Source: Armatimonadota bacterium (GTDB lineage: Bacteria; Armatimonadota; Armatimonadia; Armatimonadales; Armatimonadaceae). From it: DNA of 20,272 nucleotides. The position numbers are program-made. The stretch is from positions 1 through 20,272 of the forward strand of contig JAYUUO010000310.1 in assembly GCA_043754515.1 (NCBI GenBank), read 5' to 3'. The first letter of the stretch is position 1. The number at the start of each line of letters is the position of its first letter. This document shows, one piece after another, positions 12,001-18,000 of the stretch.

Positions 12001-15000
12001 TACGCGGCGGCGGGCGCGATGGCGGCGACCGGCTCCGCGATGTCGCCGGTCCAATCCGCGATTGAAGTGCTGGCCGCCGCGCCCGTGGGCGACGCACTGG
12101 TGATCGCCGCGCGCGACATGCTTTCCACCCTGCTCGAAGAGGCGATCCAGATCGGCGCGACCGCCGTTTCCGTTGAGCCACAGGGGGGGCACGCCCTGAT
12201 CTCCTACCGTCTGCCGCGACGCCAGCAACGACGCGCCATGCTCCGCTCCGCGCATGCCCTGCCCCGCCCCGCCCATACCGCGCTAATCGCCGAAATAAAG
12301 CGGCAGGCGAACTTAGAAGTGGGGGAGCGACGTCGGGCGCAACGCGGCTGGCTCGGACCCGTCACGGAACCGGGGTTGCCACCCCTCGACACGCGGGTCG
12401 CCCTGCTCCCCGAGCTACACGGTGAGCGCATCACGCTACAGCTCCTGCGCCGCGACCCAGTCGCCCCCGAACTCCTCGACCGCTTCAATCTATCCCCCGC
12501 GCAACGCGAGCTACTCGCCGCGCTCCTGTCGCGGCGCGGCGGGCTGATCCTGGTAACCGGGCAGAACTGGCAGGAGATGCTTTACTCGCTGGTAACGGTG
12601 CTGTCGCAGGACGAGGGCGCGAACGCGCGGACTGTGGTAACGTGCGAACTCGCGGTGCGCTACGAGATCCCGCACACGTCGCAGTGTGTGGTCGAACCGA
12701 TGGAAAGCTCGCCGGAGGCCATGGCTATCGCGGTCGCGAACGCGGTAGACGCGCTACAAGGCCAGGACCCCGACGTGCTTATGGTAAACGCGTCGGCGGC
12801 GCACCCGCGCATCGCGGCGGCGGTTTGTCGCGTTTCGGCGGTCGCGCCCGCGAGTAGCCCGCTGATCCTGGTCGGCATGAGCGCGGCGGGGGACTCGCTG
12901 GACGCGGCGGGGGCGGCGGCCGCATTAAAGCAGGCGGTGGGGGCGGAGGCGGCGGCGAGCGCGCTACTCGGCGTGTTCACCGAACGCCGTTTGCGCCGAC
13001 TGTGTCTTTCCTGCCGCGCGATGGAGGAGGCCGACGAATTGACCGCCGCCCGCCTCGGCATGCGAGTGGGGGACCCGATCTACCGCGCGGTCGGTTGTTC
13101 GCGTTGCGAGAACAGCGGGTATCTCGGTGAGTTCGATGTGCAAGAGGTGCTAACGTGCGACGGCGGATTCGCGCGCCTGCTCCGGGAGAACGTGGACGCG
13201 TGGACGCTGCGTCACTACGCCGCGCGAATGGGGATGGTACCGCTCAAGGAGACCGCCGTCGCGCGGGTCCGCGCGGGCCTTACCTCGGCGGCGGAGGTGA
13301 TGGCTCAGGGAATCGTATAGCGGGTGAGTCCGGGGCGCGAGTGCGTGGGTTCGCCCATCGTGCCGCGAGTCCGAGGCGCGGATGGATTAAAAGTGACCGC
13401 CGTCCCCACTTCCAGGCGAACGAGCAAACGAGGGGGTAGGATGGTGGCGGGACATCACCGTGGACGCGGTGGGGCTGATTTATGTGTCCTGCTGGCCGAG
13501 CGTGGACGTCTACCAGCGGGGCCGCTGAGCGATGCGGCCCCGCCCGAAACAGGGACTAGTCCCAGAACCGGTACGTCGGCACGTTCGCTATCGTGCCGAG
13601 GATGTTCCAGATCCCGCCGACCACGAACTGCCCGATCATCAGACCGAAAAAGAATGGCAGGGCACGGCGGAACGTCTTCAGCCCGCCGAACCGCAGTAGC
13701 GTTGCCTTCGCGACCCACGCCATCGTCAGTGGGAGCCAGACGAGGTTCATCTGGTACGACGACGTGACCGCGAACGCCAGCGGGTGGAGCGGGAACCACG
13801 GGAAGTACAGCCGCGCTACCTGCATCGCCGACGCGATCGCGAACCCACCCAGCACCGCGAATAGTTCGCCGGGGTTGCCGTTCACCGGGTTCTGTAGCCA
13901 CCCCGCAATCCGCGCGTACGTCCCGTACCCCTGCGTGAAGCGCACCTGCGCCGTCGCGCCGTAGTGGTACATCAGGTCCAGATAAATCCAGAACGCCGCG
14001 AACGCTGCGAACACGCCACCCGCCATCAGCACTGCGGTCCACGCGCGCCGCTCCTTCGCACCCCCGGCGTCGTCGCACAGTTTGTAGCTTTCTAACTGAT
14101 GCGGCATCGGGTGGGAGCGGTGCGCCTGCGTGAACCATTGCAACATACCGAGCGCGACCAGATTCTGCCCGTCGAACGCGCGGGTGCCGGCGATGCGGGT
14201 CATTAGCATCTCGGGCCCCGTGAAATGTAGGTCATGAACTGGCGTACCGATCTCCGCGCGCATCCGGGTGATCGCGAGTGCCAGCGCGAAATAGACCAGA
14301 AAGAACAGAATCCCGAGCAGGGGTGACAGGCCCATCGTCGCCGTGAAAACCGTCAGCCCCACGAAGCCCGCGAGTCCGCCGAAGACCGCGAGGCGGTACG
14401 GCATCGGCTCACCGGAATCGTCCAACACGCCTTCCTTCCCGCACGCCTTGCGCCAAACGTCGCGCAGGTAGTGCCGCGCGACATAGAGTGACAGGGCGCA
14501 GAAAGACAGGTACGCGCCGAACGCCTGCCCCTCGACATACGGGAAGCGCGGGTTCATGTCCAACGCGAGCGCGACCACGCCTACCTTTTGTAGCTTCCAG
14601 AACCAGTAAAAGACCGGCACGGAGAACAGGAAGTCGAGCGGCATCAGGACGCCGAGGCCGATCACGAACGGGTAAAACGAGAGCGGCACCTCGCCCATCG
14701 CGGACCACGGCGGGCGCGAGAAATATTGGATCAGTCCGGGCATGTCGTTCAGGTCGGTGTACGAATAGCCGTTCCCCGTGTAGCCCATTGCTGGTATCGC
14801 GGGGAAGAAATAGTTCAGACCGTTGAACAGGTCCGGCACGCCCGCGACCAGCACCCCGACCCAGAAGAGCGGGTTTCCAAACAACCCTTTCGCGCTCCAG
14901 GTCACGGGGTCGGCGATCTGAAGCGGCAACTGCACGACGGGAAATGTCAGCCGCTCGTTCTCCGTCCAGGCGCGGCGCAAAATCGCGTTCAGACACAGCA

Positions 15001-18000
15001 TGACCCAGAGCAGGAGCGCAACGAACAGCGTCCAGCGGCACACGACCGGGAACCACGCCGCCAGAATCGCCGGTTGCCACACCGAGCCGGAGCCGATGTA
15101 ATACCGGTCGTAGATGGCGGGATCAGAGATCGTTAAATGCTTGGGCAGGAGCGGCGTCACCGCGCCCCAGCCGTTCGCCGCGCTGAAGCGGAAGCCGTAG
15201 GTGATGACCGGGATCAGCACCTGCAACATGTCAATCCCGGCGACGGCGGACGAGATGGCTAGCACCGAGTAGGTCAACAGTAGCTCGCCCGGCGCGAGCG
15301 CGTTCCGCTCCCCGAACTGCTTCGCGAAAAGGCGGTTCAGTCCGGCGACGACGAGCAGGATGAACACAACATGGAACGGGAGCGCGAGCGCGGTCGGGTG
15401 CGTGGCGTTGCGCACCGACTCCATCTGCATCTGCCAGTAGACGCTGACCGGCACGAGAAACAGGCAGAGTAGCAGGGAGCGCACTGTGACGGCGGAAGCC
15501 CGTTTCGGCGCGGCTCCGGGCGGTAGACCCGAACCCGCCGGGCCGACCGCAGATACGGTCGGCCCTACGGGGTCGGTAGGCGAATCACTGACGGTCACCG
15601 CCGCGAGGCGTGCAACACCCCCCGGCGCGGCTACCGGGGGAGCGGGCGGATCTAGTTTCGCGTTCACCGGCGGGGGCGATCTAATCCGGGTCGGCCTCTA
15701 TAGTCAGCGGCGAGAGGACCCGACAGAAACCCTCGTAAGCCGATTTGCCCTCCAGAGTCGGGGTATTGGCTTTGCTGTACAGCCATGCGAGATTTATCGC
15801 TTTGGTATGTCCGTCGCAATACAAGGCGTTCATCATGTCACTGTGCCGTGCGACGAAGTTGCCGAGCGTCGTTTTGCCGTGCCACTTTACCGGTGGGTAG
15901 ATGTGCTCCTCGAAAGGCCAAGTGGAGGCGACGAACGCGTACCCGGACACGGTGGACGGGCCGATGGACTCGCCGACCCAGATGGTGGTGGAGGGGACGG
16001 GAATGGCCGCCATACTCAGAACATCCTTCGACGCCTCGATCACCGGTGGATTGTCCTTCTCATCGGCGGTCTCCGGTAGAGCCTCGTCGTAGCCCCAGTA
16101 GGCGTCGTTGATCGCGTACGAACCGTGGTTACGGTTGCTCGTACCCGGAACCGTGTTGTACGGTTTGTATGGTCCCCATTTGGCGTCGCCGGGACCCATC
16201 CTGGAATAGCCGTAGTCGCCCGCGATTACCTCTTTGGGATCGAGGTATTCGTCTTGCGAGGGGCACGTGAAGATCGCGGTGGTTTTCGCGTACGGCTGCA
16301 CGGCGTCCATCCACTGGTATGACTGGTCGGGCGAGCCAGGCCCGTGCGTGTTGTCCTCATCGAACACGCCGTAATAGTGGCTCATCATTGCCTCGTCGAA
16401 ATCCTGGGAATAGATCAGCATGGCGGTGCCGATCTGCTTCATGTTGGAGAGGCACGCGGTTTGGCGGGCTTTATCGCGGGCTTGCGCGAAGACGGGGAAC
16501 AGGATCGCGGCGAGTATCGCTATGATTGCGATCACGACGAGCAATTCGATCAGGGTAAAACCGCCTCGGGTGGCTTGTACAGTGGTAAACGCACCGGAGC
16601 GTTTGAGAAACTTATTCGCACTCACAGGCAGTGACATATGCGTAGACACTTTCTAATCGCAAAACAAGAACAGTCGGGTTGGTTGTGAAAGGGTTAGTCG
16701 AAGCGTTCCGCGACTAGGCGAGTGTACCCGCGCGGTTCACGTTTGTGAACACAAAATGGTCCGCGCCAGACGATTTTTTTCCAATAATTTTACCGACGCC
16801 CCTACCGCCGCAGATCTTCGAGCGTCGCCTCAAGCCGCTTCAGGTAAACGGACGAGGTTCCCGTGAAGAGGCGGAGGCGTGCGCGCCCACGGCGGATCAG
16901 GCGGTGCAGGGTCGCGGTCGCCGCCTCCCGCGCGGTGGGCGTGATGCCACCCGCAGCTATATCGCCGACGAGATCGGACACGCTCGCGCCCTCCGGCAGG
17001 CGCGGCGCGTCGCCCGTCTCCCCGAGTACCCGCTCGATCCGGTCGCACGCGCTGGCAATCCCGTCCTCGCCCTGCACCTGCCGCCCGACCTCCGCCGCCC
17101 GGATCGCGTATTTCGGATCGTAGAGCAGTTTGCCCAACTCCCGCGCGACCCGGCGTGCCTGATAGCGGATGCGCGGCACGTTGCGCCCGACGCCGAGGCG
17201 GTGGATGCGGTCGGCGTGGTCGGGCTGGTCGTGCGCGAAGGGCACGATGAGTTGCGGCCGCCCGGCGTTTAGAGCCTGCCCTGTAGTGCCGACGCCGCCC
17301 TGATGCACCACCACCGCGGCCCGTTTCATCAGCTCGCCATACGGAGCGTACTCGAACGCCACTACACCGTCTGGTAGCGCACGGTCAGGGCGGTTGCGCG
17401 GGTCTTTGCCGATCAGCAGGATCGCGCGGCGGTGCAACATGCGGGCGGCCTCGGCGGACTGCCGGAAGAAGTCGCCCGCCATCAGCACCGCTGCCGTGCC
17501 GAGCGTGAACAGGATGGGCGGCTCCCCCGCCCGCAGGAACTCCTCTAAAGCGGGTTCCAGGGTCGCTTCCCGGTCGGAAAGGCGGTCGTAAAAGCAAAAG
17601 CCGGTCTGGTAAGCGTTCGCGGGCCAGTCCACCTGTGGTCTGGCGAGCGCGGACGAGAATAGAACGAGCGTTCCGAAAGGCGAGAATTGCCCCTCGAAGA
17701 TCGGGTGTCGTCCTGGTGGCATCCCGAGATCGGCGCGGAGCCGGGGCACCTCCTTCGCCCAGCGCAGGGTGTCAATTTTCGCGAGTTTCACGATCGGCGC
17801 GACGGCACCGGGCGGTAGCTGGTGCATCAGCCAGCCGGTGTGTCCGGGAGTACCGGGCGGGGTCGGCGGGTCGTACACGGACGCGAACACGATGGGTTGG
17901 AGCACGGTGGATAGCCAGGGGATGTCGAACTTCTCGGCGACGATGGGGACGGCGTAGGTGATCGGATGCGAGAGGAGCAGGTCCGCGCCCTGCGCTGCCG

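Follow-up and report, generated by a model that had tools for sequence, protein, structure and literature searches.

The window, the whole stretch of 20,272 nucleotides of Armatimonadota DNA analysed in this study, carries on its reverse strand a gene for a pilin-like protein (g05033) followed by a gene for a membrane protein (g05032). The following features were considered:

11479..13320, forward strand: MshEN + T2SSE (PilB/GspE-like) gene, convergent with the pair; context (Pfam, motif check)
13556..15667, reverse strand: g05032, DUF6785+DUF6784 membrane protein of 703 aa, start GTG at 15667 (Pfam, model and fold searches, controlled profile comparison with bacterial OPT)
15598 and 15484, reverse strand: alternative GTG starts of g05032
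15681..16637, reverse strand: g05033, pilin-like DUF1559 protein of 318 aa, start ATG at 16637, frame open to GTG at 16649
16721..16749, reverse strand: sigma-70-like consensus site 5′ of g05033; lead only
16802..18346, reverse strand: EryCIII/GT28-like glycosyltransferase gene upstream of g05033 on the same strand; context (Pfam, neighbour maps)

Both Pfam domains of g05032 were found in one chain, DUF6785 with 484 bits and DUF6784 with 101 bits (cut-offs 25 and 26.4), which confirms the domain assignment made in the genome-wide survey's note. For g05033, PF07963 scored above its cut-off and a prepilin cleavage motif lies just before the Phe codon at 16559; with its methylation motif, helix and C-terminal D-G-H motif of the H-x9-DG type, the protein resembles the prepilin-like DUF1559 family (PF07596) known from Planctomycetota and Armatimonadota. 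Its model consists of a long N-terminal helix (3–53) and a small beta domain with low-confidence loops; the best structural rows were pilins, with no Foldseek match at E<=0.001, and no lectin or binding-protein row appeared in the fold searches. Co-folding of g05032 with g05033 scored 0.00 in two runs with controls not folded and bears neither way.

A promoter at 16721..16749 would make g05033-g05032 a two-gene pilin-transporter unit, but this is a lead only: one such site was found against 0.5 ± 0.7 in shuffled sequences, which is chance level, and a promoter and terminator scan gave no excess over chance. No counterpart of the glycosyltransferase gene was seen beside the three closest relatives of g05032 (maps of L251–L253). 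The convergent T2SSE-like gene, in which the canonical Walker A motif is absent, is regarded as context with putative membership, and in L252 a different gene follows the g05032 relative. According to Pfam, no glycosidase adjoins g05032 in the window.

DUF6785+DUF6784 proteins belong to the OPT/Yellow-Stripe superfamily as a divergent branch and are distant kin of plant iron-chelate and peptide importers; that fold and homology are shared is almost certain. The DUF6785 model matches the core and scaffold fold of barley Yellow Stripe 1 (HvYS1; PDB 7wsr/7wst; YSL branch) over nearly the entire chain. In profiles, four sequence motifs are collinear between DUF6785 and OPT proteins, with scores of up to 28.6 bits compared with -4.2 for a reversed control and 2.0 for other membrane proteins, and 11 DUF6785 ORFs score above the cut-off of PF03169. 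The fold proposed in the survey's note is thus borne out by fold searches and sequence homology, while its view that the link is not visible by sequence has to be corrected. HHalign alone gave a weak result (probability 9%, E 0.004 over 320 columns), a narrow DUF6785 alignment against 75 bacterial OPTs reached a probability of 1.4%, and a forced global alignment failed. The family profile found nothing among PDB sequences at E<=10, an internal inverted repeat was undetectable by sequence, and a viral structure library gave no match at E<=0.001. A search for fused longer forms (1181–3370 aa) yielded none, which is weak evidence; an apparent 1455-aa frame in genome G045 is really a normal 670-aa gene.

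NPG and KIPPR, described as motifs of the OPT peptide (PT) clade in PMC3061005, occur in 5 (NPG) and 0 (K-x-PPR) of 142 DUF6785 members. Because bacterial OPTs have them in 0 and 1 of 75 cases, they fail to define the whole OPT family. Like bacterial OPTs (PF03169; TC 2.A.67 in PMC3061005), to which they are homologous by profile, DUF6785 proteins are encoded by a single gene without an ATPase; unlike them, they reach dozens of copies per genome, and g05032 has no match to the strict Pfam OPT family PF03169 at E<=0.01, nor does any gene in the whole genome. From HvYS1 the prokaryotic DUF6785 proteins differ by an identity of only 10–13%, by a CBM-like domain inserted in some members, by the absence of iron-uptake genes nearby and by Fe(III)-DMA-binding residues (these include F130, Y451, K482 and Y551; PMC9691689) that, judged by eye only, are not recognisably kept. 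An identity of 13% to YS1 says nothing on the substrate. The stretches matching the YS1 pocket (F130, S136, Y451, K482, Y547, Y551; mapped by eye only) are variable among paralogues. Two almost invariant acids (model positions 421 and 475, the latter present in 99% of close and 70% of broader members) lie by eye in the hairpin and helix matching those of the proton-coupling aspartates D446, D490 and D494 of YS1, where the profiles are unaligned; the whole putative proton-site region (model 400–545) has no profile alignment to OPT.

It is very probable that DUF6785 proteins are importers. Each would act as a single-chain secondary importer of the inner membrane that needs neither ATPase nor binding protein, its core domain sliding against the scaffold as an elevator driven by a cation. 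By analogy to YS1 this cation is probably the proton, although with only moderate confidence. Homodimer, cation-coupled uptake and elevator movement are YS1/YSL traits and are predicted only for DUF6785. Since pocket-lining loops vary in an expanded family, paralogues probably take different substrates.

This expansion is considerable. Between 6 and 45 or more paralogues per genome were counted in Armatimonadota and Poribacteria (about 45 in one 4.6-Mb genome), and some soil, freshwater and sponge bacteria carry dozens. DUF6785 was present in 127 of 151 Armatimonadota genomes, canonical OPT in one; it also occurs in the Poribacteria phylum (26 of 26 genomes), which speaks against the label "most Armatimonadota-specific". 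The description as missing permeases is not supported as stated either: sugar-type ABC binding proteins were found in five of five genomes checked (1–10 per genome), yet outnumbered by DUF6785 in four, and Fimbriimonas has 17 sugar ABC sets according to PMC4072686. Database names for 10 DUF6785 clusters were only "DUF6785 family protein" or "hypothetical".

The tie of DUF6785 to DUF1559 pilins is real but optional. A pilin adjoins 13 of 100 DUF6785 copies and 1 of 183 control anchors (about 4% expected, p 2e-4); within three genes the numbers are 29 of 100 and 5 of 183 (about 11 expected, p 2e-5). The source genome, with 69 DUF1559 pilin-like genes in total, has a pilin at three of its six DUF6785 copies. 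The pair of the window is kept in the three closest relatives of g05032, with the pilin directly upstream, and the two of these pilins tested matched g05033 best among the 69; in L160 pilin and DUF6785 genes alternate (pilin-DUF-pilin-DUF). Pili-like fibres of Planctomycetes bind dextran (PMC5394234); a cognate DUF1559 capture protein might hand glycans to each DUF6785 permease, as SusD does to SusC. Such obligate coupling is very unlikely: 71 of the 100 copies lack a pilin within three genes (in G148, all 11 do), a single cluster holds the only pilin motifs, 3 and 4, of two Poribacteria genomes with 26 and 29 copies, motifs outnumber the transporter elsewhere (131 vs 15 in G095), and the pilin model shows no lectin or binding-protein fold. 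The adjacency counts and the near-absence of pilins in the two Poribacteria genomes argue against an obligate SusC/SusD-like pair, and work downstream of DUF1559 pilins, as the earlier reading had it, is not supported as a rule. Fimbriimonas has 79 pseudopilin-like genes (PMC4072686). DUF1559 pilins would be frequent co-regulated neighbours, conserved for g05032, and no obligatory subunit.

CAZyme-like genes are adjacent at 20 of 81 co-oriented DUF6785 positions and at 10 of 110 controls, a broad count that includes nine weak matches (E 1e-7 to 8e-3) classed by the analyst and paralogues that are not independent. Strict Pfam glycosidases alone (9 of 81 vs 5 of 110 controls, p 0.098) were not significantly enriched. 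About three quarters of the co-oriented neighbours cannot be recognised as carbohydrate genes, and many copies lie among housekeeping genes. DUF6785 is the only transporter in one complete fructan locus, and glycosidases of many different families adjoin close relatives. A carbohydrate tie is supported for part of the family by the broad CAZyme count, the fructan locus, the glycosidases beside close relatives and the CBM-like domain, but not by the strict glycosidase count. LacI within three genes gave no signal (3 of 100 copies, 2 of 183 controls).

Alternatively, these OPT-fold importers could have mixed substrates (peptides, metal chelates, amino sugars, amines, organic acids), the CAZyme neighbours partly reflecting shared accessory regions of glycan-rich bacteria. 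Besides the strict count, this is favoured by dipeptidase, nitrilase, MttB-type methyltransferase, aminotransferase, PhyH dioxygenase and CAAX protease genes as neighbours (in single-copy lineages, DUF6785 stands beside a CAAX-protease-like gene in L247 and similarly in L248), by the known OPT substrates, peptides and metal chelates (PMC3061005), by Atlas look-alikes auto-named peptide transporters (0.76–0.78, lead only) and by the poor operon organisation of Armatimonadota genomes (PMC4959169). The broad enrichment, the fructan locus without other transporter, the diversity of glycosidase families, the CBM4/9-like insertion and the 81 co-oriented neighbours, none of which is an iron or siderophore gene, speak against it, and we consider it rather unlikely.

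In one DUF6785 subfamily, to which g05032 without insertion does not belong, a CBM4/9-like domain is inserted in an outer loop. It matched PF02018 domains clear of controls (HHalign 91.9%, E 7e-7 pairwise; Atlas 0.86); a PF02018 match was obtained for only 1 of 33 members (E 0.054), and the insertion alone had no Pfam or PDB match of its own. Because a giant FtsX/M28-like protein follows in 13 of 23 metagenome loci of this subfamily, the insertion may serve another module. These loci (in L242 and L244 with a second membrane protein after the giant FtsX+M28-like one), isolated copies next to efflux or MacB-like genes (an efflux pump in L139; L201) and the glycosyltransferase preceding g05033-g05032 would suit a non-importer, with the fold put to use in an exporter, a flippase, a sensor or the membrane part of an ABC/FtsX-type envelope machine. 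This has a slim chance at best: the insertion, the mark of most giant-partner copies, was detected in just 12 out of 401 Armatimonadota genomes, catabolic genes are commoner as neighbours than biosynthetic ones, and dozens of paralogues fit substrate diversification. ABC ATPases, named in the survey's note as a possible pointer to another role, are not enriched within three genes (4 of 100 copies vs 17 of 178 controls) and are ruled out as main partner for the six-genome census.

We thus favour, on balance, OPT-branch single-chain importers of which a large share would take oligosaccharides or sugar derivatives freed by neighbouring glycosidases, lyases and esterases, as context and the fused CBM-like domain suggest. 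Carbohydrates are likely to be among the family's main classes of substrate, and sugar import by many copies is likely but unproven; for g05032 itself, the chances of being a glycan importer are about even.

Polysaccharide utilisation loci (PULs) include the SusC/SusD type of Bacteroidota and LacI loci with CUT1 ABC or MFS transporters. The same types of parts are combined in L053, L052, L167 and L202, where a regulator, a kinase and glycosidases of both extracellular and cytoplasmic kinds accompany the surface protein and the transporter. These units differ from those PULs in that transport falls to an OPT-fold protein of the inner membrane, that a type IV pilin-like protein takes the place at the surface and that TonB-dependent receptor and ABC set are absent; most DUF6785 copies lie outside such units. 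PULs are mentioned in PMC11131199. A third kind of PUL in Armatimonadota is conceivable but unlikely as a whole: pilin-like DUF1559 proteins would bind glycans at the surface, a pilus machine would pull them through the outer membrane, and the matching DUF6785 proton symporter would import oligosaccharides, while in pilin-less lineages or subfamilies the permease would act by itself or capture glycans with a CBM-like domain of its own on the outer face.

Search listings of the literature on DUF6785, DUF1559 and Planctomycetes pili, OPT/yellow stripe, OPT with oligosaccharides since 2015, Armatimonadota, Chthonomonas and Poribacteria, outside subscription journals, TCDB and InterPro texts, gave no link of DUF6785 to OPT or sugar uptake, and no paper came up for the term "DUF6785". 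Predicted substrates of prokaryotic OPTs are peptides, and the word "sugar" is absent from PMC3061005; sugars are a substrate class not reported for OPT/Yellow-Stripe transporters. The results provide a fold and a testable function for a family that ranks among the largest sets of transporter-like paralogues in two carbohydrate-degrading, mostly uncultured phyla, with the fructan locus giving a concrete candidate substrate. If sugar uptake is true, the OPT superfamily (peptides, metal chelates; one solved structure) would gain a carbohydrate branch, and DUF6785 would be a marker for glycan loci and new CAZymes in these genomes.

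The pair of genes encoding the pilin-like protein g05033 and the DUF6785+DUF6784 protein g05032 was located together with the following genes:

15681..16649, minus strand: pilin-like DUF1559 gene; 322-aa frame, 318 aa from the ATG at 16637; prepilin methylation motif and DUF1559
13556..15667, minus strand: DUF6785+DUF6784 gene; 703-aa frame; DUF6785 E 4.5e-145, DUF6784 E 4.2e-29
Upstream of this pair: EryCIII/GT28-like glycosyltransferase
11479-13320, plus strand: MshEN + T2SSE (PilB/GspE-like) gene without canonical Walker A, downstream and convergent on the pilin-transporter unit

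Both frames are 13 bp apart, confirming that g05032 directly follows the pilin-like gene as stated in the genome-wide survey's note, whose count of six DUF6785 genes in this genome (26-41% identity to each other) was also reproduced. The MshEN/T2SSE protein is possibly an inactive, regulator-type ATPase. Two further ORFs on the minus strand, one lipoprotein-like (592 aa, 9589-11367) and one signal-peptide-like (256 aa, 6013-6783), had no Pfam match. Because the 642-aa form of g05032 used in the note begins within the conserved T-x-R motif of helix 1, an upstream start is more likely.

Searching PDB sequences with the DUF6785 family profile gave no match. The link to the OPT superfamily, described earlier as invisible by sequence, was detected by matches to the Pfam OPT model (PF03169) in DUF6785 ORFs and by profile scores above controls. 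In the same 151 Armatimonadota genomes as used for the distribution of DUF6785, this model found a single canonical OPT (E 7e-102) plus 23 weak matches. A DUF6785 ORF was present at 15 of the weak loci, and these 15 take in 11 of the 12 above the cut-off. Against 120 bacterial OPTs, a profile of 101 DUF6785 proteins reached a best score of 28.6 bits, with 23 of the OPTs at 15 bits or higher, versus maxima of -4.2 bits for reversed OPTs and 2.0 bits for 78 other hydrophobic proteins of the window's genome. HHalign of DUF6785 against OPT was weak overall (probability 9%, E 0.004, 320 columns), despite which four collinear motifs were matched:

T-x-R-A, in helix 1
E-R-L-x-F-P
Arginine-glycine stretch, preceding the second hairpin
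G-L-x-x-G-D, near the end

The profiles do not align over the stretch with the proton sites of barley Yellow Stripe 1 (YS1); two acids placed there by eye only, at positions 421 and 475 of the predicted structure, are kept in 92% and 99% of close and in 71% and 70% of broader members, respectively. We regard the fold and the homology as established. Because g05032 did not pass the PF03169 cut-off in the Pfam scan, it is counted in the OPT superfamily and not in the Pfam family PF03169. Weak PF03169 matches were also seen in ORFs of ~670-710 aa outside the picks of the DUF6785 profile (L073, above the cut-off, L088 and L090), possibly another divergent OPT-like family. The name DUF6785 occurred in no paper of the literature searched, where nothing connected the family with OPT or with the uptake of sugars. 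An assignment may already exist in TCDB, the InterPro text or subscription journals, which lay outside this search. "DUF" is absent from the main text of a 2026 preprint on YSL evolution (10.64898/2026.08.27.747422).

Of 151 Armatimonadota genomes with a completeness of 80% or more, 127 have the family, against 0 of 14 control genomes. Calling it the most Armatimonadota-specific family, as in the title of the survey's note, is overstated because all 26 of 26 Poribacteria genomes have a match at E<=1e-155; two Poribacteria genomes hold 26 and 29 matches. Copy numbers reach 57 matches in genome G131, equivalent to about 45 genes after merging of fragments by eye, with 22 matches in G117, 15 genes in G095, 11 in G148, 9 in G026 and 8 in G022. 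On contig C1 of G131, several matches are broken into adjacent fragments via frameshifts or long-read errors. In a FastTree tree of 106 DUF6785 proteins (midpoint root), these expansions are lineage-specific, one clade holding 14 of the 15 G095 copies. The proposal that DUF6785 proteins are the missing permeases of the phylum did not hold, as sugar-type ABC binding proteins (PF01547) occur in all five genomes counted (3 in the window's genome G000, 6 in G131, 10 in G095, 1 in G117, 4 in G136); DUF6785 genes (6, about 45, 15, 22 and 1, respectively) are more numerous in four of them.

The neighbor census compared 100 DUF6785 genes (minimum length 450 aa) with twenty control regions of 20 kb each, placed at fixed coordinates. 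The DUF6785 genes came from six contiguous genomes picked because of their completeness; five contributed every copy, and G131 contributed 35 of its roughly 45, taken in order of score. Genes were called with a custom hexamer model. A pilin-like gene was adjacent to 13/100 copies (1/183 control anchors), within two genes of 21/100 (3/183) and within three genes of 29/100 (5/183); about 4% adjacent and 11% within three genes are expected from genome-wide pilin counts (p 2e-4 and 2e-5, computed on counts of 13 and 27, not 29). In G148, 0 of 11 copies have a pilin this near. We consider an obligate pilin-coupled machine improbable. ABC ATPases, previously named as the commonest neighbor, were within three genes of 4/100 copies versus 17/178 controls; the family has no ATPase partner in this census. 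Of the 81 adjacent genes that share the orientation of their DUF6785 gene (not counting pilins, LacI, DUF6785 and genes <100 aa), nine had a glycosidase domain versus 5/110 random control genes (p 0.098). After rescanning all no-hit proteins of at least 418 aa at E<=0.01 (16 neighbors, 6 controls), matches classed by us as glycosidase-, lyase-, esterase- or CBM-like amounted to 20/81 versus 10/110 (p 0.0046), all census p values being too strong because the paralogues are related. The enrichment of pilin and CAZyme-like neighbors is moderate. The majority of neighbors are non-carbohydrate genes. This agrees with the absence of operon order reported for Armatimonadota (PMC4959169), but also with a wider substrate range; a mixed range with sugars as a minor part is rather unlikely in our view.

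The three nearest relatives of g05032 (G170, G040, G172; 72, 71 and 59% identity) each have a pilin directly upstream. For two tested relatives, this pilin matches the window's pilin better than any other of the 69 pilins of G000, at 63% and 37% outside the shared N-terminal part (285 and 125 bits versus at most 55). Thus g05032 and its pilin are a conserved pair; shared descent alone could account for the conservation. At 29 relative loci of this subfamily (42-72% identity; 32 neighbors from 22 loci scanned), a glycosidase (GH2, 26, 27, 43, 53, 92, 127) was within 1.5 kb at eight, two of these with a lyxose-isomerase-like cupin, while a rhamnose mutarotase was found at one locus and a pilin at five. 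No glycosidase lies beside g05032.

A fructan-type unit of G095 (L053, L301) comprises, in this order, LacI, pilin, DUF6785, GH32, GH32-RicinB, PfkB kinase and GH32-CBM6-RicinB-Calx; the last is 1771 aa long and has a signal-like start. Transposase debris lies at both borders. The first GH32 starts directly with the catalytic domain, and no transporter besides DUF6785 was found within the unit. Cytoplasmic GH32 and kinase require an inner-membrane importer, for which DUF6785 is the only candidate here. The order is LacI, pilin, 72-aa protein, DUF6785, GH66 in L052 and pilin, DUF6785, GH4 in L167 and L202; both GH4 proteins, of a family of cytoplasmic NAD-dependent enzymes, begin with the nucleotide-binding motif. 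MttB-type (trimethylamine methyltransferase family) genes adjoin these GH4 units (L167:9311-10726, L202), which suggests methylated-sugar use. In L160, pilin and DUF6785 alternate twice before a DHDPS-family aldolase. Genes for membrane proteins or lipoproteins of 56-95 aa often follow DUF1559 pilins, between pilin and DUF6785 (L052:10165-10383, L061:8460-8675, L160:9300-9470, many G000 pilins); those scanned had no Pfam match. In G000, the DUF6785 copy on contig C51 is followed by a GHL6 glycosidase, a regulator and a pilin, that on C194 by LacI and pilin, and that on C256 is convergent with GHL6; those on C121 and C242 have no clear sugar gene alongside. Counter-examples are L139 (2979-12881), where pilin, a 789-aa unknown protein, DUF6785, HlyD and AcrB form one co-oriented run (efflux pump), and L247 with a CAAX-protease-like gene after DUF6785. 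A role of DUF6785 other than import seems very improbable. In two single-copy lineages (L247:6743-10086, L248:5272-8591), DUF6785 overlaps a next gene of about 460 aa, carrying a CAAX-protease (Rce1-like) domain in L247; this context is conserved, not sugar-related and close to elongation factor P-like genes.

The pocket loops of the family are variable. Some members, 870-890 aa in length, carry an insertion of 160-200 aa bounded by profile positions ~115 and ~161, within the loop that follows helix 2. By comparison with YS1, this loop would face outward near the pocket entrance; g05032 is without the insertion. The insertion was found in 12/401 Armatimonadota genomes and 23 metagenome loci, and every one of its 39 full matches falls within DUF6785, two partial matches not being counted. 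Inserted members are:

L241:6803-9409
L242:6577-9189
L243:6640-9279
L244:6519-9191
Loci L255-L294

An Atlas ranking placed CBM_4_9 clusters first (0.85-0.86), which is a lead only. When 33 of the 35 distinct insertions were aligned and compared with six PF02018 domains, the match had a probability of 91.9% over 94 columns (score 44 versus 17 for the reversed template and a maximum of 14.4 among 30 shuffled ones); Pfam and PDB searches with the insertion did not confirm the CBM4/9 likeness. A giant FtsX+M28-like protein (1750-1800 aa, often with a second membrane protein) follows 13 of the 23 metagenome loci, and such partners are a possible source of the ABC count in the survey's note. The inserted copy of L243 is preceded instead by a pilin and a PcRGLX-like lyase.

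All characterised OPTs are described as cation symporters, prokaryotic OPTs being uncharacterised (PMC3061005). By analogy, uptake by DUF6785 proteins would be cation-coupled; they would sit in the inner membrane and may move by an elevator mechanism. We somewhat favor the reading that DUF6785 proteins are OPT-fold importers, with sugars as the probable substrates for a large share of the paralogues.
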